This document shows, in pieces, positions 479 to 37,665 of a stretch of 64,000 nucleotides of DNA. This stretch comes from Nitrospirota bacterium (GTDB taxonomy: Bacteria; Nitrospirota; UBA9217): the NCBI GenBank assembly GCA_963737155.1, contig CAVTRN010000001.1, positions 1,280,001-1,344,000 of the forward strand, written 5' to 3'. A program made the position numbers and the translations under genes. The notes under the pieces were generated by a model. That model did no database searches. It was not told where the DNA came from and saw only the letters and a program-made list of their open reading frames with translations. Position 1 is the stretch's first letter, and each line of letters opens with the position of its first letter.

Positions 479-2848
479 ATGCGATCAATCAAGGTTTTAA
501 CAGGCTCGGCATTGGCGTTCGCTATTTTCATCATAATGGCAGCCGCAGTATATGCCGCCCCTGTAGCTACTAATGAAATCCATGGAACGATCAAGGACGC
601 CCTAGGAAGACCTTTGTCCGGGGCAAGTCTGACACTGAAATCACCCAATGCAACTATCATAGGCAAGACTCAGAGTGATGCCGACGGCCACTTCGTGTTT
701 TCGAGTGTACCGCCGGGCATCTATGCAGTCATGGCGGAAAAAAACGGTTTTCAAGCAAGCACCGCCAAAGTGACAGTAGAAGCCGGGACGATAGCCACTC
801 CGACGCTGACCCTGGCTGCCCAAGAAGCACTGGAAGTGTCAGTCGTGGCTGAACGCTTGAACCAGGCTCGAAACAGTCTGTCACCAAAGACAGGAGGCAG
901 TGAGTACAATTTTGACCAGAGTGATATTACCGCCTTACCTCAGGGGGATAGCACGCCCCTAAACCAGGTATTGCTCCAGGCGCCCGGCGTGGCCAATGAC
1001 TCGTACGGCCAGCTGCATGTGCGGGGTGACCACGCTAATCTCCAGTACCGCTTTAACGGTGTCATCCTACCCGAGGGGATTACCGGATTCGGCCAGGCGC
1101 TGGACACCCGGTTTATCGAACGGATGGATCTTCTGACCGGTGCCCTGCCGGCCCAATATGGCCTGCGCACGGCGGGAGTAATCGAAATAGAAACCAAGGC
1201 CACCTATGAGACAGGAGGGCGTATCGATCTCTACGGAGGAAGCTTTAACACCTTGGAACCGAGCTTCGAGTTCGGAAGTACGACGGGGAATGTGACCTAC
1301 TATCTGACCGGTTCCTACTTGCAGAACGACTCGGGCATCGAAAACCCCACCTCAAGTCCCAGCGCGATCCATGACCACACGGATCAAGGAAAGGCCTTCG
1401 CGTATGTATCAGATCTCGTCAATCCCACGACGCGGGTAAGCCTGATATTCGGCAGCTACGACGGTTGGTTTGAAATTCCCAATAATCCGGGACAACCTAT
1501 CACCAATTCGAGCTACCTGACCGAAACTGGCATTACCGGCTTCAACTCCGCTGCATTGAACGAGAATCAGTACGAGAATAATCGTTATGGAGTCGTAGCC
1601 TTGCAAAGTTCTATCGGGTCGGACTTCGATTATCAAATCTCCACGGTCACCCATTACACGAGCGTCCATTTCACGCCTGACCCCATCGGCGACCTTGTTT
1701 TCAACGGTACTGCATCGGATGTTTTCCAAAGCAGTTTTAGCCAGGGATTACAGGGTGACGGAAGTTATCGCCTGAACAATGCTCACACGATCCGGATGGG
1801 CTTTTTTACGAGCATCGAAAATATCGAAAGCAACAACACCTCCACGGTTTTCAATGTGGACGCCAATGGTAACGCTACCGGACCGGCCTACGCTGTCACG
1901 GACAATACCCCGAAGAGCGGTAACATCCTTGCGTCGTTGTACCTCCAGGACGAGTGGAAGGCGATTGAAAAATTGACGGTTAACTATGGGCTCCGGTATG
2001 ACGCGATGGACGCCTATGTGAAAGCTAGTCAACTGAGTCCCCGACTAGGCATGGTTTACAAGTGGACACCGGAGACTACGCTGCATGCCGCCTACGCCCG
2101 AGAATTCACACCGCCACCGACCGAGCTGGTCTCGTCCAGGACAGTAAACGATTTCATTGGCACCTCCAACTTATATGGCTTTTCGACCTTGAATTCCCCC
2201 GTTGAGCCGGAACGGGACCATTATTTCGATGCGGGGGTAACCCAGAAGATCACCTCCTCGCTGAATGTCGGCGTTGATGCTTTCTACAAGACAACCAGGG
2301 ATCTGATCGATGAGGGCCAATTCGGCCAGGCTCTGATCTTTACCCCTTTCAATTATTCAAAAGGAAAAATTACTGGTCAGGAGCTGACCGGCAACTACCA
2401 CTCCGGCAATTTTTCCTCTTATGCGAATTTTGCCCATACCGTCAGCCTGGCCGAAGATGTTTCGTCGGCACAGTTTAACTTCACGCAGGCTGAGCTGAAT
2501 TACATCGCTAATAACTGGATACATTGTGACCATGACCAGCGCTATACAGTTTCCGCGGGTGTTTCCTATCTCTGGCTGGGAACTCTATATAGCTCCGATG
2601 GTACCTTTGGAAGCGGCTTACGGGGTGGATTCGCCAATACGGTTAATTTGCCGAGCAACACCCAGGTCAATCTGGGGGCGACGCGTAAGTTTGTGCTGGG
2701 GAGCTTCGGCCCTATGGAGGCGCGTCTGAGCATAATCAACGTTTTTAATAAGATCAATGAAATAAGGAGCGGAACTGGAATCGGCGTATTTGCGCCTCAG
2801 TATGGGCCGCGGATTGGGTACTTCGCCGGCATTACCAAATTATTTTGA
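479..2848 (+). CDS. TonB-dependent outer membrane receptor with N-terminal carboxypeptidase-regulatory-like domain
   Basis: Signal peptide, CarboxypepD_reg-like segment (GTIKDALGRPLSGASLTL), plug (LLQAPGV...HVRG), beta-barrel motifs (NYGLRYD, SPRLG), terminal Phe, AGGAG RBS. Confidence 0.92.
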   Translation: MRSIKVLTGSALAFAIFIIMAAAVYAAPVATNEIHGTIKDALGRPLSGASLTLKSPNATIIGKTQSDADGHFVFSSVPPGIYAVMAEKNGFQASTAKVTVEAGTIATPTLTLAAQEALEVSVVAERLNQARNSLSPKTGGSEYNFDQSDITALPQGDSTPLNQVLLQAPGVANDSYGQLHVRGDHANLQYRFNGVILPEGITGFGQALDTRFIERMDLLTGALPAQYGLRTAGVIEIETKATYETGGRIDLYGGSFNTLEPSFEFGSTTGNVTYYLTGSYLQNDSGIENPTSSPSAIHDHTDQGKAFAYVSDLVNPTTRVSLIFGSYDGWFEIPNNPGQPITNSSYLTETGITGFNSAALNENQYENNRYGVVALQSSIGSDFDYQISTVTHYTSVHFTPDPIGDLVFNGTASDVFQSSFSQGLQGDGSYRLNNAHTIRMGFFTSIENIESNNTSTVFNVDANGNATGPAYAVTDNTPKSGNILASLYLQDEWKAIEKLTVNYGLRYDAMDAYVKASQLSPRLGMVYKWTPETTLHAAYAREFTPPPTELVSSRTVNDFIGTSNLYGFSTLNSPVEPERDHYFDAGVTQKITSSLNVGVDAFYKTTRDLIDEGQFGQALIFTPFNYSKGKITGQELTGNYHSGNFSSYANFAHTVSLAEDVSSAQFNFTQAELNYIANNWIHCDHDQRYTVSAGVSYLWLGTLYSSDGTFGSGLRGGFANTVNLPSNTQVNLGATRKFVLGSFGPMEARLSIINVFNKINEIRSGTGIGVFAPQYGPRIGYFAGITKLF

Positions 2849-2851
2849 CGG

Positions 2852-2883
2852 TTGATGGAGGGGAACTCGTTCCCCTCCATCAA
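2852..2883 (+). terminator. Perfect 15-bp hairpin after the receptor (terminator or mRNA stabiliser)
   Basis: TTGATGGAGGGGAAC-TC-GTTCCCCTCCATCAA. Confidence 0.6.
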
Positions 2884-2909
2884 ATTTCTATTGAATTGAG
2901 AGGTTTACG

Positions 2910-3554
2910 ATGCAAGAAATACACATAGCTTTAGAAACATTGAGATTCGGCGGCGCGATGGTCTATCCGTTGATGCTGCTCGCGGTCTTGGCAGCGGTAG
3001 TCATACTCGACAAGGCATTCGTTTATTGGCGGTACGTAAGCCTTCCGGGTCCACTGCTTAAACTCGTTGAAACCTATGATTTTTCATGGGCTGATTTAGA
3101 TCTGCAGTTGACAGGGCTCACCCAGCAAAACTATTTCCGGCGGTTTTTCCGTGTGGTCATGGACAATCGTGGGAAGCCGGTCTGGTGGGTGGAATCGCGC
3201 GCTGGCGATGAAGCCCAGTTGATTGAGAAGGATTTAAGCCGTGGTTTGTGGGTGCTTGAAACCATCGTTACGGCTGCTCCTCTCTTAGGACTGCTTGGTA
3301 CGATCACCGGGATGATGCATGCCTTCAACCTGATCGGCAACAACGGCTTGGTGGACCCAACCGGAGTGACAGGAGGAGTAGCCCAAGCACTTATAGCGAC
3401 CGCGCTAGGTCTCTTCATTGCTGTCATTGCCCTGTTCGCGTTTAATTTCTTTTCGCGCCGGCAGTCACAAATGCTTGATGAAATGGAACGACTGGGGACG
3501 CGGCTAGTGGACAACATCCGCATGGCGGAAGTTGTCCAGGAGGATACCTTATGA
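2910..3554 (+). CDS. exbB: MotA/TolQ/ExbB proton channel protein
   Basis: APLLGLLGTITGM and GVAQALIATALGL motifs, three TM segments. Confidence 0.9.
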   Translation: MQEIHIALETLRFGGAMVYPLMLLAVLAAVVILDKAFVYWRYVSLPGPLLKLVETYDFSWADLDLQLTGLTQQNYFRRFFRVVMDNRGKPVWWVESRAGDEAQLIEKDLSRGLWVLETIVTAAPLLGLLGTITGMMHAFNLIGNNGLVDPTGVTGGVAQALIATALGLFIAVIALFAFNFFSRRQSQMLDEMERLGTRLVDNIRMAEVVQEDTL

Positions 3555-3955
3555 AACTACGTAAATCCCGCCAACACCGGCGTGGCCGAATCGAAATCAT
3601 CCCGATGATCGATGTGATGTTCTTTCTCCTTGTCACGTTCATGCTTGCTTCGCTCTCAATGCAGAACTTGCATTCACTGGCGGTCAATCTCCCCCAAGGG
3701 CACGCTGCAGCCATGCAGCCCAAGACCTCGGTGACGCTTACTATCACCCGGGACAGCCGCATACTCTTGGACGAGATCCCGGTAACTTTGGAGACGCTTG
3801 CCGCTTTCTTGAAACCGATGCTTAAGGGGGAGGACTCGAGTGTTATTGTGGCGGCCGACAGCGCGGCGCCATACGGAGTAACGGTCCAGGCGATGATGCA
3901 GTGCCGCGAAGCGGGTGCCCAGCATTTTCTTATAGCTGTCAAACATGTCAGGTGA
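3551..3955 (+). CDS. exbD: Biopolymer transport protein ExbD
   Basis: IEIIPMIDVMFFLLVTFM motif, ATGA overlap with exbB. Confidence 0.9.
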   Translation: MKLRKSRQHRRGRIEIIPMIDVMFFLLVTFMLASLSMQNLHSLAVNLPQGHAAAMQPKTSVTLTITRDSRILLDEIPVTLETLAAFLKPMLKGEDSSVIVAADSAAPYGVTVQAMMQCREAGAQHFLIAVKHVR

Positions 3956-4673
3956 AATTATATTAATGAGGACGTCCCGAAGCATAGATAGCCCTTGGCA
4001 TCGCCTCCCCTGGACGCTGCCGACAGCCCTGCTAATTTGGGCAGTGGCGTTATTGGGGTTAGCATATTTTATGGAAAAGCCGACCCAGAGGCTGATGGAG
4101 CCATCAGCCATTGATGCCCAGTTGTTGATTGAGCAGTCCGTTTCGCCTCCGCCTGCGGCCGTGCACCAACCCAAACCGCTGCCTCAAGTCAGGCCACAGC
4201 CGGCTCCTGTGATATCTAAGGTGACGCCCACTATCGAGCAGAAGCCATCAGTCCAGAAGGCGGAAGAGACAACGAACGTGCCCAATGGTGCCCATGCCAC
4301 TACAAGTGAGGGTCAGACAACGACTGGGGTGAACACCTCCGCAAATAGCAACACCCAGGTCGGGTCATATGACGGACAAGGCTCTTCTCAGGGTAACATA
4401 AGCGCGAGCAGCGGAGCCCGGGCAATTGTCCAGCCAATGCCGCAAATCCCGGATGATTTGCGGGCTGAAGTGTTTAATTTCTCTGCACTTGCTCGCTTCC
4501 ATATTGCCGTTGATGGCAGCGTAAAGGTAGAACTCGCAAAGCCGACGCCGAATCCACGTCTTAATAGGATATTGCTGGATAGCCTCAAGAAGTGGCGGTT
4601 TATTCCGGCGATAAGGAACGGTAAGCCTGTTGCCTCGACAGAAGAGATCGTTGTCAGAATGGAAGTCAAATGA
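3945..4673 (+). CDS. tonB: Energy transducer TonB
   Basis: N-terminal TM anchor, Pro-rich linker, C-terminal KWRFIPAIRNGKPV motif. Confidence 0.85.
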   Translation: MSGEIILMRTSRSIDSPWHRLPWTLPTALLIWAVALLGLAYFMEKPTQRLMEPSAIDAQLLIEQSVSPPPAAVHQPKPLPQVRPQPAPVISKVTPTIEQKPSVQKAEETTNVPNGAHATTSEGQTTTGVNTSANSNTQVGSYDGQGSSQGNISASSGARAIVQPMPQIPDDLRAEVFNFSALARFHIAVDGSVKVELAKPTPNPRLNRILLDSLKKWRFIPAIRNGKPVASTEEIVVRMEVK

Positions 4674-4996
4674 TTTCAATACGAATAGCGTCGCATTTGC
4701 ATGGTCGGACGTGAATCAACTTTCAAATCGCGTTCAAGAGTATGATTGGATTCTTTCCCCTTGTCACAATATTGGCACTAAAGACTTGTAGATGTTCCTC
4801 ATGGCCAGAATTGATTAGAAGTGAAGAAGTGCGATTGAAACTTGCAGTGTCAAAGAGCAATGGCTCCGGTATTGCGACTTGACCTTATCCAATTTGGGAT
4901 GCTATTGTTGGTCTCGCTTGCAGAGGCAGTTATTTTACGATCAATGCGTACTACGTGGTTGACTGTCATCTCCATTCTGCTCTCTCCTTGACGTTT

Positions 4997-29977: not shown

Positions 29978-30763
29978 ATGGCTGTGCAAGGAATATGGAG
30001 CGGGACGATCAGCTTCAGCCTGGTTGCGATTCCGGTGCGGTTGGTCAAGGCAATAGAGCCTGGCCGATTGTCTTTTCACCTGCTCCATAGTAAGGATTAC
30101 TCCCGCTTGTCACGGAGAATGGTTTGTCCGGAAGAAAAAACCATGGTCTCCCCGGATGAGATCATCAGGGGATACGAAATCGTGCCTGACAAATTCATTC
30201 TGATGACGGATGAGGAGCTGGAATCCGTGTCCCCGGAACGGAGTCGTACAATCGAGATCGTCGAGTTCATCGATAAGAAGGAGGTTGATACGATCTATTA
30301 TGATCACCCTTATTATCTCGTTCCTTCGAAGGGGGGCGAAAAAGCATATCAGCTTTTGGTCGAGGTGATGCGCCGGACGAAAAAGGCCGGGCTTGCAAAA
30401 TTCGTTTTGGCTGAACGTGAGTATTTGGTGGCAATTAAAAGCAGGGACGGAGCGCTGGAGCTGACCACGCTTCATTATAGCGACGAAATACTTTCCGATG
30501 AAGACATTTCGCCAAAGAAGGAAAAAATCGACGCTGAGGAGGTAAGCCGGATAACAAAAAGCATTAATCAAATGATCGAGGATTTTAACCCAGCAAAGTA
30601 TGCCGACAGGCGCCGGAAAAAACTCATGGATCTTCTCGCGACGAAGGTGAAAGATCAAACTCCGGTAGAGGCTCCTGCAGCGGAGGAAGAGGATGGAGAA
30701 GGTCCGGCAGATCTGGTCGCCGCACTGGAGGAGAGCATGCGGAAAGTGAAGGAGAACAGGTGA
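29978..30763 (+). CDS. ku: Ku protein (NHEJ), paralogue 2
   Basis: IWSGTISFSLVAIPV, IYYDHPYYLVP, KAYQLL, DLVAALEESM. Confidence 0.92.
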   Translation: MAVQGIWSGTISFSLVAIPVRLVKAIEPGRLSFHLLHSKDYSRLSRRMVCPEEKTMVSPDEIIRGYEIVPDKFILMTDEELESVSPERSRTIEIVEFIDKKEVDTIYYDHPYYLVPSKGGEKAYQLLVEVMRRTKKAGLAKFVLAEREYLVAIKSRDGALELTTLHYSDEILSDEDISPKKEKIDAEEVSRITKSINQMIEDFNPAKYADRRRKKLMDLLATKVKDQTPVEAPAAEEEDGEGPADLVAALEESMRKVKENR

Positions 30764-31665
30764 ACCGAACAGTCGTCAAGATAGCAGGAAGGCGACTTCC
30801 TTTATCGAACCTCGAGAAGGATCTCTACCCTTCCTATGGTTTCACAAAGTCCTGTATCCTGGAATATTATCGAGGGATTTCATTGTTTATCCTCCCCCAT
30901 TTGAAAGATCGAGCCTTGACCTTTAAGCGCTATCCCGACGGGGTGGAAAAGGATTTCTTTTTCGAGAAGCGTTGTCCTAAGCACCGTCCGGACTGGGTGA
31001 AAACAGCGGAGATGCTCCAGAATGGTGGTGAGCCGATGATTGTCTGCCTGATCAACGATCTGGAAACGCTGCTATGGGTGGTGAATCTTGCCTCTCTTGA
31101 ACTCCATGTGCCTCTGGCCAGGGTCGGATCGCCTCAGACGCCTGATGCCATGGTCTTTGATCTGGATCCCGGAGATCCGGCAAACATTTTCGAGTGTGGG
31201 CGGGTAGCTTTGATACTTCGGGACCTGCTCTCTCGCATGAACCTTGTGAGCTATGTAAAAACCTCAGGTAGAAAGGGACTGCATGTATATGTACCCTTGA
31301 ACAACAGAGAGACAACCTTTGAGGATACGAAGACATTTTCAAAAGCCGTGGCAGGAATCATGCAGAAACATTATCCTAATCTGGTGACTTCAAAAATGAC
31401 AAAGCAGGAGAGGAAGGCGAAAGTTTTTATCAACTGGGCTCAGAATGACGCTTCAAAAACGATGATCTGCGTTTACTCACTTCGTGCTCGGGAAAAACCC
31501 TTTGTTTCATTTCCCCTTGAATGGAGGGAAGTGGAGAATTTTGACGGGCAGGATGCCCCGGAAAGATTGCAAGTAGAGCATTGGCAAGCTGTGAGTAGAG
31601 TTGAAAGAATGGGGAACCTTTTTCAGGATATGCTCATAAAAGAACAGAAGCTGCCTCATCTGTGA
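30760..31665 (+). CDS. Stand-alone LigD primase-polymerase domain
   Basis: LSNLEKDLYP, RYPDGV, FFEKRCP, FDLDPG, KTSGRKGLH, YSLRAR. Confidence 0.92.
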   Translation: MNRTVVKIAGRRLPLSNLEKDLYPSYGFTKSCILEYYRGISLFILPHLKDRALTFKRYPDGVEKDFFFEKRCPKHRPDWVKTAEMLQNGGEPMIVCLINDLETLLWVVNLASLELHVPLARVGSPQTPDAMVFDLDPGDPANIFECGRVALILRDLLSRMNLVSYVKTSGRKGLHVYVPLNNRETTFEDTKTFSKAVAGIMQKHYPNLVTSKMTKQERKAKVFINWAQNDASKTMICVYSLRAREKPFVSFPLEWREVENFDGQDAPERLQVEHWQAVSRVERMGNLFQDMLIKEQKLPHL

Positions 31666-31941
31666 CAGAATCATCACGCGAATGATAGCTTCTGTGCAAA
31701 AAGGATAAACAGTATTGAGCTGTCGAAGCTAGTTCCCAGAAGCATGCTGTCTTCCTTGCGTGTCCAAGAAAGCCAACCCAACGAGGGACACGGACGGAAT
31801 ATTTTTTCAGGGTGCAGATCGTTCACGGTACATTTCGAAAACTCACTCTTCTCGCTCAGAGACAGCCGGAAATGTTTCACCGTCGGCTCGATTGCACGCT
31901 TAATTCTCGAAGGGATTATGTATCCTGCATTGGTAAATGGT

Positions 31942-33552
31942 ATGGGATTAAGAGAATACGCATCGAAACGGGAATTCGAGAAAACGCCCGAACCGAAGCC
32001 TGGCGTTCGCCAAGAGAGGAATCGTCTCATGTTTGTTGTTCATAAGCACGCAGCCCGTACTTTGCATTATGATCTCAGATTGGCGCTGGAGGGGGTTTTG
32101 AAGAGCTGGGCTGTCCCGAGGGGGCCCTCGCTGGATTCTTCCTTAAAAAGGTTGGCAGTCATGGTTGAAGACCACCCGCTCGGATATAAAGAGTTTGAGG
32201 GCGTTATACCGGAGGGCAATTACGGCGCAGGAAGCGTCATCATCTGGGATAAAGGTCTATATCATCATCCTTCTACACGTGACGAAGACGAAAGCGAAAA
32301 ACTTCTTTTGGACGGATTCAGAAAAGGGGATATGAAGTTTGTCCTCGAAGGGGAAAAACTTCATGGTGAATTTGCGCTGGTTAAAACAAGAAAGGACGGG
32401 AAATCGTGGCTGCTCCTGAAGAAAAAAGATCGAAATGCGACTAAAGGGAACATTCTCAAAGAGAACCGCTCAGTAGTGTCTCATAGAACTCTGGAGGAGA
32501 CACTCGAAGCCGATGCCCTAAAATCTTTCAGACAAAAGAAAGTCAACCAAATCCGTGTTGATGAAGCAATAGAAAGCGAAGACCTGAAGGATGTGCCAAG
32601 CAAACCTATGCCGCAGGCTATAAAACCGATGCTCGCGATAATGGTCAAGGAACCTTTTGATCATCCCGATTGGATTTTTGAGGTGAAATGGGATGGATAC
32701 CGGGCCTTTGCCGAAATTCGTGATAACGCTGTTTCGCTTTATTCCCGGAATGGGATCTCCTTCAATAAAAAGTTCTCTCCTGTTGTCGAGTCGCTTCGGA
32801 TATTTGGAATTGACGCAGTTCTGGACGGCGAAATTGTTGTGGCTGACGACCAGGGACGCCCTAATTTTCAGATGCTACAGCATTATGAGGAATCGAGACG
32901 CGGTCATTTGCTCTACTACGTTTTTGATATCCTCTATTTTCAGGGACATGATCTGACGAACCTGCCCCTGATCAGGAGGAAAGAACTCTTGAAAAAAATT
33001 CTCCCGATCGGCACAAAAATAAGATTTAGCGATCACGTATGGAAGGAAGGAGTCTTGTTTTACCATGTTTCCAAAGAAAAGGGGTTGGAGGGGATCATCG
33101 CCAAACATTCTCAAAGCGCGTACGAAACGGGAACAAGAAGCCGGAAGTGGTTAAAAGTCAAGACGCGGTTCACGCAGGAGGGCGTGATAGCAGGATTTAC
33201 AGAACCGGGAGGGAGTAGAGAATATTTCGGTGCCCTTGTCCTGGGAGCATTCGAAAGGGACGAGTTGAAGTACATAGGCCATGTAGGAGGCGGATTTACG
33301 ACGAAATATTTGAAGGATATCCGCGAACAATTGGGTCCCCTGATCCGGAAAGAATGCCCCTTTAACGTAACACCGGAGACCAATGCCCCGGTCACTTGGG
33401 TAAAGCCGGAGCTGGTCTGCGAGGTCACATTATCCGGCTGGACTGATGATGCTATCATGAGGCAGCCCGTATTTCTGCGGTTGCGCGAGGACAAAGTCGC
33501 CAGCGAAGTTGTGCGAGAGAAACCACTGACGAGCAGCGAGGGAGGACCGTAA
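31942..33552 (+). CDS. ligD: LigD: 3'-phosphoesterase plus ATP-dependent ligase domains
   Basis: HAARTLHYDLRL, KSWAVPRGPS, VEDHP, EVKWDGYR, GLEGIIAK, WLKVK. Confidence 0.92.
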   Translation: MGLREYASKREFEKTPEPKPGVRQERNRLMFVVHKHAARTLHYDLRLALEGVLKSWAVPRGPSLDSSLKRLAVMVEDHPLGYKEFEGVIPEGNYGAGSVIIWDKGLYHHPSTRDEDESEKLLLDGFRKGDMKFVLEGEKLHGEFALVKTRKDGKSWLLLKKKDRNATKGNILKENRSVVSHRTLEETLEADALKSFRQKKVNQIRVDEAIESEDLKDVPSKPMPQAIKPMLAIMVKEPFDHPDWIFEVKWDGYRAFAEIRDNAVSLYSRNGISFNKKFSPVVESLRIFGIDAVLDGEIVVADDQGRPNFQMLQHYEESRRGHLLYYVFDILYFQGHDLTNLPLIRRKELLKKILPIGTKIRFSDHVWKEGVLFYHVSKEKGLEGIIAKHSQSAYETGTRSRKWLKVKTRFTQEGVIAGFTEPGGSREYFGALVLGAFERDELKYIGHVGGGFTTKYLKDIREQLGPLIRKECPFNVTPETNAPVTWVKPELVCEVTLSGWTDDAIMRQPVFLRLREDKVASEVVREKPLTSSEGGP

Positions 33553-33553
33553 T

Positions 33554-34306
33554 ATGATGAAAATCTATACAGGAACAAGTGGGTTTGCGCATAAGGAATG
33601 GAAAGGAAAATTCTATCCTGAAAAGATCTCGCCCAAGGAAATGCTTCATTCTTATGCGGAACGTTTTAAAACTGTAGAGATCAACAATACTTTTTATCAT
33701 ATGCCCAAAGAGAGTGTGCTCACATCCTGGACAGACCAAGTCCCGAGTGATTTTGTGTTCGCACTCAAGGCGCCTCAGGTCATAACACATATTAAGCAGT
33801 TGATAAATGTGTTTGAGCAGACCGAGTACCTCTTTAAGTCGCTGTCTGTTATGGAGAGGAAACTGGGGCCAATCCTTTTTCAGTTCCCCAAAAGTTTTTT
33901 TGCGAACGTGCGTGTGCTAAAGGATTTTCTCGCACTGATTCCTGGCACTGCGGCCTGCGCATTTGAGTTTCGCAGCCCATCTTGGGTCGATGCTGGCATG
34001 CCAGATCTCCTTCGTGAAAGCGGATGCAGCCTGTGTATCGCCGATACCGATGAGAATCCGGCACAGGAGATCATCAGCACAGCGCAATGGGGGTATTTAC
34101 GCCTGCGCCGTTCAAATTATAGGGATGCCGATCTGTCACAATGGGTGGAAAGAATCTGTTCTCAAAAATGGGAGAAGGCCTTCGTTTATTTTAAACATGA
34201 GGACGAGGCCAAAGGGGCCGAAATGGCAATGCGCTTTCAGGAGTTCGTCGATTCTAGATTAAACAAGGGAAAAAGCAAGATAGGAAAGATACGGAAAGCC
34301 GGCTAG
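33554..34306 (+). CDS. DUF72 family protein
   Basis: GTSGFAHKEWKGKFYP, VEINNTFY, LGPILFQFP, FEFRSPSW. Confidence 0.9.
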   Translation: MMKIYTGTSGFAHKEWKGKFYPEKISPKEMLHSYAERFKTVEINNTFYHMPKESVLTSWTDQVPSDFVFALKAPQVITHIKQLINVFEQTEYLFKSLSVMERKLGPILFQFPKSFFANVRVLKDFLALIPGTAACAFEFRSPSWVDAGMPDLLRESGCSLCIADTDENPAQEIISTAQWGYLRLRRSNYRDADLSQWVERICSQKWEKAFVYFKHEDEAKGAEMAMRFQEFVDSRLNKGKSKIGKIRKAG

Positions 34307-34329
34307 AGGAGGGCCGCAGAGTAAATTCC

Positions 34330-34356
34330 GTCATGTCTGCGTAAGCGGGGAACCAG
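34330..34356 (+). repeat. Degenerate GTCATTCCCGCG..GCGGGAATCCAG-type palindromic repeat
   Basis: GTCATGTCTGCGTAAGCGGGGAACCAG. Single copy in the window. Confidence 0.3.
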
Positions 34357-34559
34357 GTTGTTTATTGTTTGCACATTCCCTTCGCGGCCTAAAAAAAAAT
34401 TTTAACCAGTCTAAACTCTTGGTTGTGTGTTGTCCGTTTGAGTGGTGTAAATATGAACTCGCGATTTCCTTCGGGAATTATGCAGGTTTAGACGGAATCA
34501 ACAAGAACATGGTTAATTGCTGATAAGTTGTCGCACGCAAACCCGATCATTGGGTAACC

Positions 34560-35144
34560 ATTCTTCTGAATGAGGTGCTGCAATTTTTCGAAATCGATTT
34601 GGGGGCAAGACAACCTTGGGCGAAGACCAGGTGACCGCACTTTTACGGAGGGCCATTTTATCTAGTTTGAGCAGGCCCGTGAATGCGAGTTGCACCATTC
34701 GTACCAGCAGATCGCGCCCGCACTCAAACCCGCAAGCACTGTTCTCTGTTACCCAACTTTGATAAGCAGCTCGTCGATCCCCAGGCGCAGCCACATTATC
34801 ATCATGCGAAGGGCATTGCTTCCTTCGACATAAATCAGATCGACCGACTTGATTTTCCTGGTTGCCGCTACCCGGTCATAGGGGTTTCTATAGAGATGGA
34901 TCTTGTCAGTTTTGCACCATGGCAAAACCCCGTAGAAATGGTCGAACGCCGCGCAATGGCCAACTGGATCGTAGCTTGCAGTGGGTCTGAAGAGCACACG
35001 AGGAGTTTTCTTGCTTGTGGTTTTGACGATATACCTGTCGATCTCAAGTGTCTCCTTCTTCTTCAAACTGTTGCCACAGATGGCAATAATATTCATAGCT
35101 TCTTTGTCATTCTCCGACTTACCAAAGTAGGGTTTTTTTATCAC
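34560..35144 (-). pseudogene. Peptidase E (S51 family) pseudogene
   Basis: PTAS and DLIYVEGSN motifs. A premature TAA precedes the in-frame catalytic LAGLSAGAICW. Confidence 0.7.
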
Positions 35145-37093
35145 GTTCTTTTTTCCCCGCCGAACATTTTCACAATATTCTTGACCAAGGCAGGCAGCGA
35201 CGGATCCCGTGCTCCCATGACAAGCACACAGTCTCCTGATCTCGCCTCAGTTTTTAATTCGGTCAATAACTCATCGCGATTCTGAACCGCATGTGCTTTG
35301 AACGCGACGGGGCCAAGACCCTGTATAATGTCTTCTGAAGAAATGTTTTTTTCCACACTGCCTCCTACATAATAGATCGGCAGGAGAAAGAGCGAGTCAT
35401 GTTGCATAAAGGCGGTCTGGAAGGTTGAGATGTATTCATTCTTTAAGAATCGTGTTGAACCGAACCCGTGCGGCTGGTATATGGCAAGAATGCGGTCGGA
35501 AAGACCGCGCGCGGCACTGACGGCAGCCGCTATCTTTGCTGGATTATGAGCAAAGTCGTCGATCACCTGTATGTTCTGATTTGTGCTAGTCACGGAAAAA
35601 CGACGGGCCACTCCCTCATAATTGATAACAGCATCGGCAAGTGCCGTTTGCTCGCATCCAAAATGCTCGCATACGCAGAGCGCCGCATGTAGGTTCTCAA
35701 GATTATGACTGCCAGGGAGTGGTAGGTGATATTCAGTATCTCTTTTAAAAAGCTTGACTGACGTCGGCAGGAGTTCCTCACGATCCCCTCGACACAAGGC
35801 CGAACCATTTTGGCCGAAGCGCTCGGATGCAGGAAGGGAATAAAGGACCGGATCAGCTGCATTCGAAGCAGTCCAGAGAGATTGTGATACAAGTATTTCG
35901 AAAAGTAGTTTTATATCGTCAATACTTTTATGGTCCTTGGAAAGATTCAAGATAACTGCAGCCTCAGGACGGTATTTGACGATGGTTCCGTCGCTTTCAT
36001 CCGCTTCTACGACCAGGAGCTCGGAGCCCCCATTATAGGCATTCCCAATAAGCCCCTGCTTTTCGAGCCTGCGCAGACTGGCGCCGCTTATGAGGGAGGG
36101 CGATTTTCCACAGGCGGTCAGGAATTCGAATATCATTGCTGTCACTGTCGATTTGCCGCTTGTGCCGGCGACGACAATTGTCTTTTTTGTCGTGATGATT
36201 GCGGCGAGCAGATCGGAGCGATGGATGATTGGAACGCCGTGGCTGTGCGCAGCGATGATGTCAGGATTTGATTCTTCTATTGCTGTTGAAACGCAAACAA
36301 CATCGGTATTCGTACCCACACCCGATCCGTCCTGAGGAACGATCGCACACCCAAGCCCTTCCAGTGATTGCCGGAGAGAGGTTGTATCCTCACTTGCCAT
36401 TAAACGATCAGAACCCGAGACCGTGATTCCCTGAAAGCGCAGGTATTGTGCAAGTGCGCTCATGCCGCTTCCGAAAATGCCGGTAAAATGGACGCTGTGG
36501 CATCGGCTTTTGTTGATAACGATGGGAGGAGGATCAATGTAAACGAGCGTCCCTTCCTGGACAGTTTCAAATAACTGGATGATATCGCGATTTCGCATGC
36601 AGACACAACCGTGCGACAGAGGAGTGCCAATGAGGTCCTCCCGCCCGGTGCCGTGGATATAGATATAGCGCTCAAAGGAATCCACACCCGTGCCCTTGTT
36701 GATCCCTTCCTCAAGACCTTCGAGCCGCAGAATGCGGGTCAAGATCAGATTATCTGCAGACAGACTGTGATCCCAGTCAATGCTTGTATCCTCACGGTCT
36801 CTGAAAATACGGCCGACAGGCGCGCCTGATCCAAACTTTTCCTTAATCCAATGCATGCCGAGAGGCGTTTTAAGTGAATTTTCCCGGTTGCCGTTGCCGA
36901 AGCGTGACGTCGAGATGTCGTATCGCTCGACAATGGTATCGTTCGCGCAGACGAGGAGCGTTTGTGCCTCGATGGACACCACGAGATAAAGCTCTTGCGG
37001 GTCTATTAAAAATTTGCGTAATTTTTCGTAAATACGACTTGATCGAGCTGTTTCCATATGAGAAGATGCGTTACTTTCTTTAATATTGTGCAA
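35141..37093 (-). CDS. Fusion of a YkuD L,D-transpeptidase/carboxypeptidase domain to a MurC/Mpl-like ligase
   Basis: N-terminal YIHGT...SHGCVCMRN, then GIFGSGMSALA, AGTSGKSTVT, VEADESD, DDFAHNP, QPHG. No signal peptide. Confidence 0.85.
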   Translation of the reverse strand: MHNIKESNASSHMETARSSRIYEKLRKFLIDPQELYLVVSIEAQTLLVCANDTIVERYDISTSRFGNGNRENSLKTPLGMHWIKEKFGSGAPVGRIFRDREDTSIDWDHSLSADNLILTRILRLEGLEEGINKGTGVDSFERYIYIHGTGREDLIGTPLSHGCVCMRNRDIIQLFETVQEGTLVYIDPPPIVINKSRCHSVHFTGIFGSGMSALAQYLRFQGITVSGSDRLMASEDTTSLRQSLEGLGCAIVPQDGSGVGTNTDVVCVSTAIEESNPDIIAAHSHGVPIIHRSDLLAAIITTKKTIVVAGTSGKSTVTAMIFEFLTACGKSPSLISGASLRRLEKQGLIGNAYNGGSELLVVEADESDGTIVKYRPEAAVILNLSKDHKSIDDIKLLFEILVSQSLWTASNAADPVLYSLPASERFGQNGSALCRGDREELLPTSVKLFKRDTEYHLPLPGSHNLENLHAALCVCEHFGCEQTALADAVINYEGVARRFSVTSTNQNIQVIDDFAHNPAKIAAAVSAARGLSDRILAIYQPHGFGSTRFLKNEYISTFQTAFMQHDSLFLLPIYYVGGSVEKNISSEDIIQGLGPVAFKAHAVQNRDELLTELKTEARSGDCVLVMGARDPSLPALVKNIVKMFGGEKRT

Positions 37094-37359
37094 TGCTATT
37101 TATATTTTACGACCCCATGAAAAGTCAACTTTTAGCCGGAGACTGGGAGAAAAAAGGTGTGCTGTGCCTACAACAATATAATGGCAGCTGTGTCACATGT
37201 CAAGATGATAGGCAGCATATTTATTATACCAAAGGAGGAATGTTTCATTATTTTACATAAAAAAGCGTCTCTGGCCGTAGTCAAACTGAACCTTTTAAAT
37301 GGTACTCAACAGTTAACTTTTATCTTATATGATATTATATATTGTGATATATTATGTAC

Positions 37360-37665
37360 ATGAAATTAAGCGGTTGGGTAAAACAACTGGGGATTACCTA
37401 TCAAGCTGCATGGAAACGGTGGAAGGCTGGCAAACTTCCTGTTGAGGCTGCACAGATGCCAACCGGCACAAGCATCGTCAAAGAGCAGAAAACCGTTCAA
37501 GGTGCCCTTGCTCTTTATGCCCGGATATCCAGTCATTACCAAAAGAAAGACATGGACGTGCAGCTTGGTCGGCTTTCCGCATATGCCGCTTCTAATGCTC
37601 TTTTGTCTTTTATGATGCGTAGAACAAATTGCAGGTGCATCGATACGGTTTTCTATGACAATTGA
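37360..37665 (+). pseudogene. Truncated IS607-family serine recombinase (TnpA)
   Basis: MKLSGWVKQLGITYQAAWKRWKAGKLP...LYARISS.. Diverges after about 75 aa. No tnpB follows. Confidence 0.75.

Follow-up and report, generated by a model that had tools for sequence, protein, structure and literature searches.

At present, the reuse of whole stem peptides is linked to LdcA (or LdcV/ElsL) together with Mpl; in ldcA and elsL mutants, toxicity comes from the loading of tetrapeptide onto UDP-N-acetylmuramic acid (UDP-MurNAc). Here we describe a gene of a Nitrospirota bacterium (GTDB lineage UBA9217) that encodes an ElsL-like YkuD domain and a three-domain Mur ligase in one chain. It lies at 35141-37093 on the minus strand of the 64,000-nucleotide stretch of DNA that was analysed, called the window throughout (assembly GCA_963737155.1, contig CAVTRN010000001.1, positions 1,280,001 to 1,344,000). 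We hold, with slightly better than even confidence and from comparisons of sequence, that its product would be a bifunctional cytoplasmic enzyme that trims tetrapeptide and then ligates the tripeptide to UDP-MurNAc.

The first half is best compared with ElsL of Acinetobacter baumannii, which the sections of PMC8649774 consulted here describe as an L,D-carboxypeptidase of the cytoplasm, which shortens tetrapeptide stems to tripeptides and leaves pentapeptide untouched. In the same sections, suppressors of the synthetic lethality between elsL and ldtAb map to ampG and mpl, these recycling blocks also ease the elsL growth defect, and the model put forward has Mpl loading untrimmed tetrapeptide; the substrate assayed was the disaccharide tetrapeptide, not a UDP-linked form (PMC8649774). 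The ElsL ortholog survey described there dropped proteins >200 residues long, and fusions were invisible to it for that reason. Species without LdcA and Mpl (Caulobacter and "many other" species) are taken to break the peptide into amino acids and to be incapable of tripeptide reuse, according to the consulted part of PMC13046382 (2026). Our literature search turned up no description of a YkuD domain fused to, or in an operon with, a Mur ligase; related proteins might be listed in supplements such as Data Set S3 (the ElsL ortholog list). The "murC2" of Frankia was considered as a relevant case and set aside, being a replacement MurC in the division and cell wall (dcw) region and unrelated to the fusion (PMC7231273, consulted part).

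The reading frame of the fusion is open for 650 codons from a TTG. The identical database entry has 638 residues, and alignments to most homologues start at query residues 11-13; translation is therefore more likely to begin at the ATG at 37057 (codon 13), which gives a protein of 638 residues. Four Pfam domains match the frame, each exceeding its gathering score, and ~10 residues separate the YkuD domain from the ligase. The features of the fusion are as follows.

35141..37093 (-): whole fusion open reading frame, 650 residues from TTG; likely true start ATG at 37057
36536..36988 (-): YkuD domain, ElsL-like, residues 36-186 (Pfam PF03734, 72.5 bits)
36653-36655 (-): His147, presumed catalytic, in HGT within the YkuD domain
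36605-36607 (-): Cys163, presumed catalytic, in SHGC within the YkuD domain
36188..36493 (-): Mur_ligase N-terminal domain (UDP-MurNAc-binding type), residues 201-302 (PF01225, 49.8 bits), which aligns with the MurC nucleotide-binding motifs
35669..36172 (-): Mur_ligase_M central ATPase domain, residues 308-475 (PF08245, 45.1 bits), with P-loop GTSGKST and EADESDG
35207..35605 (-): Mur_ligase_C domain (incoming-substrate domain), residues 497-629 (PF02875, 59.2 bits)
35540-35560 (-): DDFAHNP, in the Mur_ligase_C domain
35450-35476 (-): QPHGFGSTR, in the Mur_ligase_C domain

A preliminary description of this DNA, made from its letters and reading frames, had proposed a single 650-residue frame with no signal peptide, in which a YkuD domain, catalytic His and Cys intact, precedes a complete three-domain Mur ligase. 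The Pfam matches and motifs agree with this architecture, and the motifs quoted at that time (KTPLGMHWIKEKFG, ILTRILRLEGLEEGIN, RYIYIHGT, SHGC, DDFAHNP, QPHGF) were all found in the fusion. By simple hydropathy, no signal peptide or hydrophobic N-terminal segment was detected in the fusion: its N-terminus is charged, and the Kyte-Doolittle mean over 19 residues peaks at 1.43, at residues 37-55, a segment of beta strands in the structural model. The fusion also has no membrane anchor and no peptidoglycan-binding domain, its other Pfam domains being only those of the ATP-dependent Mur ligase. Because an ATP- and UDP-sugar-dependent ligase works in the cytoplasm only, the YkuD domain is, by architecture, cytoplasmic. 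The AlphaFold2 model (72 aligned sequences) has a mean predicted local distance difference test score (pLDDT) of 90.7, with residues 1-8 alone below 50, and a predicted template modelling score (pTM) of 0.89. Such a pTM is so high for a four-domain chain that it suggests a fixed predicted position of the YkuD domain on the ligase. A complex prediction of residues 196-650 against residues 13-190 gave scores of 0.00 and 0.01, and was used neither way.

The YkuD half covers profile positions 3-146 of 146 of PF03734 at 72.5 bits, against a gathering score of 23.4. His147 and Cys163 of the SxGC motif, which we take to be the catalytic residues of the YkuD family, are conserved in 214/214 fused homologues. 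On the isolated domain, the ElsL model NF040925 scored 137.8 bits (model positions 8-159 of 164), and the next-best L,D-transpeptidase model of NCBIfam, at 28.7 bits, fell >100 bits under it. The likeness to the motifs of Acinetobacter ElsL, noted in the preliminary description, is thus supported, with NF040925 by far the top YkuD-type model in NCBIfam. This is a narrow model of type "exception", and our scores (133.9-137.8 bits) did not reach its cut-off of 270; by these scores the YkuD half is an ElsL-like relative, not a certified ElsL. Like the A. baumannii protein, it is a single YkuD domain of ~150 residues with the catalytic His and Cys and no export signal, but it is fused to a ligase, whereas ElsL pairs with a separate canonical Mpl. 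Public data contain many stand-alone proteins of ~175 residues whose identity to the window's YkuD half is 52-65%.

The second half belongs to the Mur superfamily, with PF01225, PF08245 and PF02875 all above their gathering scores, a GxxGK(S/T) P-loop, and the acidic and His motifs; Lys314, Glu363, Asp365 and His388 (P-loop, EADE, DH) are conserved in 214/214 fused homologues. Judging from this conservation, both halves of the fusion are intact and constrained. Within the superfamily, the ligase is neither MurC nor Mpl and is a member of a separate MurC-like clade. It scored 277.3 bits on the MurC model TIGR01082, below the equivalog cut-off of 335.1, and 107.1 bits, in two stretches, on the Mpl model TIGR01081, below the equivalog cut-off of 388.7. 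The canonical murC of the same genome scored 572.2 bits and adjoins murD/E/F-like matches in the dcw region (C1:496072-497403), ~820 kb from the fusion. Separate murC genes were also present in 5/5 other fusion genomes (four intact and one broken in a noisy assembly). The preliminary description had allowed for the fusion being the sole MurC of the cell; with a canonical gene found in the dcw cluster, the ligase is an extra paralogue and not the cell's MurC.

Relatives were gathered as the 150 best representatives from a library of 1.8 billion proteins, and all 150 share the odd type of the fusion's ligase. The motif DDxxHNP occurs in 132 of them, with HSP in 2, HNA in 4 and no match in 12 (several of which are fragments); MurC's HHP occurs in 0/150, and QPHG is found in 102/150 and QPHR in 0/150. 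This clade of odd ligases is large and mostly unfused, and 10/10 unfused relatives fall under the MurC cut-off. Further features of the clade are the GTSGKST P-loop, a QDGSG motif, several short insertions/deletions and an invariant C-terminal GARDPSL. A protein cluster search gave generic "MurC family" clusters only.

The phylogeny of 98 ligase domains was reconstructed by maximum likelihood (LG+G4, quick search), with Escherichia coli Mpl as the outgroup. Six canonical MurCs form one clade (99) and 91 odd ligases form another (98 in the Shimodaira-Hasegawa-like approximate likelihood ratio test). Fused forms fall into two clades that lie apart. One comprises those of Nitrospirota, Syntrophorhabdus, Syntrophus and Fibrobacterota, to which the unfused P0122 and P0124 are sisters; in the other, alphaproteobacterial forms are interleaved with unfused proteins of ~480 residues. 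The tree requires at least five changes of the fused label and, for this reason, points to repeated fusion or fission.

Fold comparison with Foldseek also placed the model nearest to MurC of Haemophilus influenzae and E. coli, with template modelling (TM) scores of 0.83-0.87 (0.86-0.87 for 1p31/1p3d), and Mpl (3HN7) ranked 22nd at a TM of 0.67. No PDB entry found by Foldseek spans a YkuD domain plus a ligase. MurC (TIGR01082; 1P3D) is therefore the nearest family by sequence and fold, sharing the nucleotide-binding, P-loop, EADESDG and DH motifs; the fusion ligase differs from it in its sub-cut-off score, its separate clade with its own insertions and GARDPSL motif, and its location outside the dcw cluster of a genome that has a true murC. 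With Mpl (TIGR01081; 3HN7), the likeness lies in the three-domain architecture, in the DDFAH motif (DDYGH in MurC), in a small residue at the MurC Arg377 position, and in the reaction proposed (tripeptide + UDP-MurNAc + ATP). The fusion ligase is, however, without Mpl's GICGTxM and EPRS motifs, and the tree groups it with MurC. If it does Mpl's job, that role arose independently of Mpl. The earlier label "MurC/Mpl-like ligase" is correct as to a full three-domain ligase, and needs amending as to kinship: the domain belongs to a distinct MurC-derived clade, the Mpl model gives it only 107 bits, and its fold is nearer to MurC.

The clade also differs in the pocket for the incoming substrate. We read its positions off a phmmer alignment in which the reference was MurC of H. 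influenzae (residues 346-349 and 374-382). In the consulted part of PMC3060825, the residues of MurC believed to bind the entering amino acid are listed as His376, Arg377, Arg380, Tyr346 and His348 (H. influenzae numbering). The window's ligase keeps His348 and His376, and has Phe for Tyr346, Gly for Arg377 and Ser for Arg380. All 214 fused homologues have Gly in place of Arg377, and Arg380 is replaced by Pro in 211 of them, by Ser in 2 (one of them the window's) and by Gln in 1. The two arginines believed to hold L-alanine in MurC are, on this alignment, both absent from the odd ligase clade. The MurC nucleotide-binding motifs are kept in the clade. This pattern points to an unchanged acyl substrate, UDP-MurNAc, and to a different amine substrate that is probably larger. 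Both arginines are also missing at the aligned positions of two Mpl proteins (from E. coli and from the Nitrospirota genome G113), which share DDFAH with the fusion ligase; the resemblance to Mpl is otherwise weak.

The YkuD-ligase architecture is widespread. The 90%-identity clusters listed as nearest to the query (at least 120, at 76-100% identity) all carry the same four Pfam domains, and species-representative genomes contain 137 stretches encoding relatives of the fusion. The best 80 of these 137 come from Nitrospirota metagenome-assembled genomes (MAGs), Syntrophorhabdus, Syntrophus/Syntrophaceae and Chitinispirillaceae/Fibrobacteres (62-64%); an isolate, Syntrophorhabdus aromaticivorans UI, has a fusion 73% identical to ours. 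Methyloceanibacter and Xanthobacteraceae have a second set of fused proteins, of ~653 residues, that share 40-43% identity with the window's. That the fusion might be confined to this assembly, a doubt raised in the preliminary description, is answered by its presence in several phyla, and we reject an assembly artefact or a unique event on the basis of this spread across genomes and phyla.

Within the phylum, we sampled 151 Nitrospirota genomes (28 in the window's family and 123 in other families). A near-full-length fusion was present in 24/28 genomes of the window's family, with a fragment at a contig end in a 25th (G062), and in 0/123 genomes of the other families. ElsL-like matches at E <= 1e-10 were found in 24/151 genomes, and every match was the fusion gene. 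Among the other families, 13 genomes (G119, G143, G151, G095, G073, G147, G060, G131, G027, G018, G135, G123 and G155) carry an unfused odd-clade ligase at 34-39% identity in frames of 450-520 residues, and in at least six of these genomes a canonical MurC match is present as a separate gene. One deltaproteobacterial MAG has its fusion ~5.7 kb downstream of a canonical murC on the same strand and contig (G005:C45:27144-28469 and 34169-35458), and hence close to the dcw cluster. The path between the ligases of the window and of locus L046 (Nitrospirota/Syntrophorhabdus) is 0.31 vs. ~0.68 for the canonical MurCs of the same genomes, which suggests that the fusion gene was transferred between phyla or is under much stronger constraint than canonical MurC.

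A sample of 101 Fibrobacterota genomes, centred on the genome of locus L087, gave a second view of the linkage between the two activities. The odd-clade ligase is present in 97/101 of these genomes, alongside a weaker MurC-type match, and 51/101 have exactly one ElsL-like gene. That gene is fused to the odd ligase in 3/51 and stands directly upstream of it on the same strand in 48/51, the aligned stretches of the split pairs lying -41 to +113 nt apart (median -8). Two metagenome loci (L123 and L130) have separate adjacent YkuD-ligase pairs in the same split arrangement. When two genes are fused repeatedly and also occur as an overlapping two-gene operon, this is a classic signature of proteins that act together, and the Fibrobacterota operon gives strong independent support to a functional coupling of the two activities.

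With regard to the recycling pathway, the window's genome is 100% complete by marker genes. We found no Mpl in it (the top match being the canonical murC at 210 bits) and no match to S66 LdcA; one GH3 (NagZ-like) gene is present. S66 peptidases occur in 0/28 genomes of the window's family vs. 29/123 elsewhere in Nitrospirota, and in Fibrobacterota in 15/50 genomes without the ElsL-like gene vs. 2/51 with it. True Mpl was found in 1/151 Nitrospirota (G113, 405.7 bits), in a genome without the odd-clade ligase, and in 1/101 Fibrobacterota (G165), one of the four genomes there that are without this ligase. Five further fusion genomes have Mpl in 0/5 and S66 in 1/5. In the window's family, an AmpG-like permease is found in 23/24 fusion genomes and is missing from 3/4 genomes without the full fusion. 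This distribution fits a ligase that replaces Mpl and a YkuD domain that replaces LdcA, which we regard as suggestive and not as statistical proof.

The G113 genome offers a comparison for the gene order. At its locus L197 (G113:C43:205500-212000), Mpl is directly upstream of an S66 ldcA in overlapping frames, at 3083-4993 (-) and 2166-3770 (-). As in the fusion family, a ligase gene sits beside a cytoplasmic L,D-carboxypeptidase gene on one strand, covering the same two steps; the pair differs in using true Mpl and the unrelated S66 fold, in placing the ligase first and the peptidase after it, and in being unfused.

In the mechanism that we propose, the ElsL-like YkuD domain would serve as an L,D-carboxypeptidase removing the terminal D-Ala from turnover tetrapeptide (L-Ala-D-Glu-mDAP-D-Ala, where mDAP is meso-diaminopimelic acid), either free or sugar-linked. 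The MurC-derived ligase paralogue, with its L-alanine pocket opened, would join the tripeptide to UDP-MurNAc. Joining the activities, whether by fusion or by an overlapping operon, would keep untrimmed tetrapeptide off UDP-MurNAc. Sequence comparison shows the domain architecture, the conserved catalytic residues, the gene linkage and the paralogue status of the ligase; what the two substrates are, and which step comes first, we infer. The preliminary description had the fusion trimming tetrapeptide and re-ligating it by channelling, or editing stem peptides; this is supported in part, the operon adding weight to salvage, while channelling would be a conjecture.

It is possible, though in our view improbable, that the order is reversed, so that the ligase loads tetrapeptide (or a tri-/tetrapeptide mix) and the YkuD domain then proofreads UDP-MurNAc-tetrapeptide to UDP-MurNAc-tripeptide. 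E. coli LdcA acts on UDP-MurNAc-tetrapeptide. The fixed arrangement of catalytic units suggested by the whole-chain pTM would be in line with such proofreading, and Mpl enzymes take tetra- and pentapeptides, though poorly, according to the consulted part of PMC3060825. Sequence data do not separate this order from trimming followed by ligation, and the ElsL assay in the consulted sections of PMC8649774 used the disaccharide tetrapeptide. Ligases without an L,D-carboxypeptidase partner are, however, common, and these would yield a dead-end product were tetrapeptide their usual substrate.

Also unlikely, we believe, is a second MurC-type ligase that adds one amino acid other than L-Ala (e.g., Gly or L-Ser), or a condition-specific MurC isozyme, with the YkuD domain editing precursors independently. 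MurC is the nearest family by hidden Markov model score (277 bits), tree and fold, the UDP-MurNAc and ATP motifs are conserved, and the ligase often stands alone with no L,D-carboxypeptidase. Nonetheless, both of the arginines that in MurC hold the alpha-carboxylate of the amino acid to be added are replaced in 214/214 fused members, which is hard to fit with MurC-like binding of a free amino acid. Such an enzyme would also leave the tight ElsL-like linkage (51/51) without a reason, and the absence of the ligase from both Mpl-bearing genomes unexplained.

A role outside peptidoglycan recycling is, in our view, very unlikely. In such a role the pair would build or edit a different UDP-sugar-peptide or a small peptide, the YkuD domain being a transpeptidase that swaps the terminal residue, with an S51 peptidase in the same metabolism. 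This would agree with the divergent substrate pocket, with otherwise uninformative neighbourhoods and with an S51 gene that overlaps the fusion stop in the window and has intact counterparts immediately downstream of the fusion in L026 and L029. Against it, S51 occurs in 3/80 loci and is a pseudogene in the window, no biosynthetic cluster was seen in 81 loci or in 24 metagenome loci, and the PF01225 N-terminal type and MurC-like UDP-MurNAc motifs are kept.

Our arguments for trimming followed by ligation to UDP-MurNAc need to be interpreted with caution, as several observations weigh against them. The ligase is nearer to MurC than to Mpl (277 vs. 107 bits, and by fold), so a single amino acid other than L-Ala is possible as its substrate, and Ser at residue 546 of the window's protein is a rare substitution in the putative substrate pocket. 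The textbook route of peptide delivery is incomplete in the window's genome: Amidase_2 (AmpD-type) has no match there, AnmK has no real match (27 bits inside a 1450-residue frame), and the one AmpG-like major facilitator superfamily permease scores 192.8 bits against a cut-off of 350. Because a cytoplasmic amidase for anhydro-muropeptides is absent, peptides would need to arrive already free, for example via an oligopeptide importer. Complementarity with S66 is not strict, S. aromaticivorans having both the fusion and an S66 peptidase, and AmpG is common in Nitrospirota families without the odd ligase (f8, f9, f16 and f17). The ligase occurs with neither an ElsL-like nor an S66 gene in 13 Nitrospirota and 35/101 Fibrobacterota genomes, and since such ligase-alone genomes are many, its job does not always need a cytoplasmic L,D-carboxypeptidase. 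The counts behind the distribution, moreover, come from related genomes that are not independent, with two Mpl-bearing genomes only. The idea that AmpG tracks the ligase across the phylum was rejected, and only the pattern within the window's family is suggestive.

As a tentative wider proposal, which we find plausible but short of probable, the odd MurC-like "DDxAHNP" ligases may be a third, independently evolved class of UDP-MurNAc peptide ligase, which with an ElsL-like partner, fused or in an overlapping operon, would make up a hidden salvage branch. In the fusion, the tripeptide would go straight from the YkuD site to the ligase, and tetrapeptide would never be loaded. If this is true, the branch would extend to groups now scored as without LdcA and Mpl (almost all of the sampled Fibrobacterota, a single Nitrospirota family, Methyloceanibacter and Syntrophorhabdus/Syntrophus), and a means of salvage would have been overlooked in several phyla. 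The fusion would then be a natural case of two consecutive recycling steps in one protein, apparently avoiding the toxic UDP-MurNAc-tetrapeptide.

The gene neighbourhood of the fusion is not conserved. In 81 loci, no real neighbour cluster was present in more than 12 (larger clusters being shadow open reading frames on the gene), and in 24 metagenome loci no conserved neighbourhood was found. In the window, the neighbours are Ku, LigD, DUF72 and DUF2301, together with an S51 gene and a promoter-like site.

34389..35144 (-): Peptidase S51 pseudogene (Pfam S51, 53.2 bits on the first 131 codons)
37175..37203 (-): promoter-like site TTGACA-17-TATATT, an 11/12 consensus match ~80-120 nt upstream of the fusion start
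29978-30763 (+): Ku, end-joining set
30760-31665 (+): LigD primase-polymerase, end-joining set
31744-33552 (+): LigD phosphoesterase + ATP-dependent ligase, end-joining set
33554-34306: DUF72, following the end-joining set

The preliminary description had noted a broken downstream S51 gene overlapping the fusion, and had seen in it a fit with peptide turnover. The first observation is accurate: the GTG start of the S51 gene (35144) overlaps the TGA of the fusion by 4 nt, and three in-frame stops interrupt it with no frameshift (TAA at 34751-34749, TAG at 34664-34662 and TAA at 34490-34488). The Pfam match is to the first half of the family, and the first stop falls 7 codons ahead of GLSAG, the stretch that presumably holds the catalytic Ser. 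Short contigs from soil-metagenome run X1 span 34371-34804 and agree with the assembly throughout, the three stops included; because this run may itself be the source sample, the agreement is no independent confirmation. The suggested link to peptide turnover did not hold up, with an S51 homologue in just 3/80 related loci (intact and directly downstream in two of them, ~3 kb away in L080). We thus rejected S51 as a functional partner, and treat the gene as a lineage-specific passenger, now decaying, that lies outside the system.

The promoter-like site rests on a consensus match only, and the six such sites in the region are not above shuffles (4.5 +/- 2.0). Upstream of the fusion, a 103-residue frame at 37354-37665 (+) had looked by eye like a truncated IS607-type/serine-recombinase transposase, and this was rejected after Pfam matched nothing in it at E <= 0.001; taken with the broken S51 gene, the frame hints that the stretch is decaying. 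The non-homologous end-joining set (window 29978-33552, +) is complete, and the same LigD and DUF72 genes are near the fusion in 4-5 related loci.

Public names for the fusion family are inconsistent and include "UDP-N-acetylmuramate--alanine ligase", "L,D-transpeptidase family protein", "glutamate ligase domain-containing protein" and "hypothetical protein". The first two of these are probably wrong for the family. Some of the stand-alone YkuD proteins of 175 residues are likewise labelled as alanine ligase in public records.

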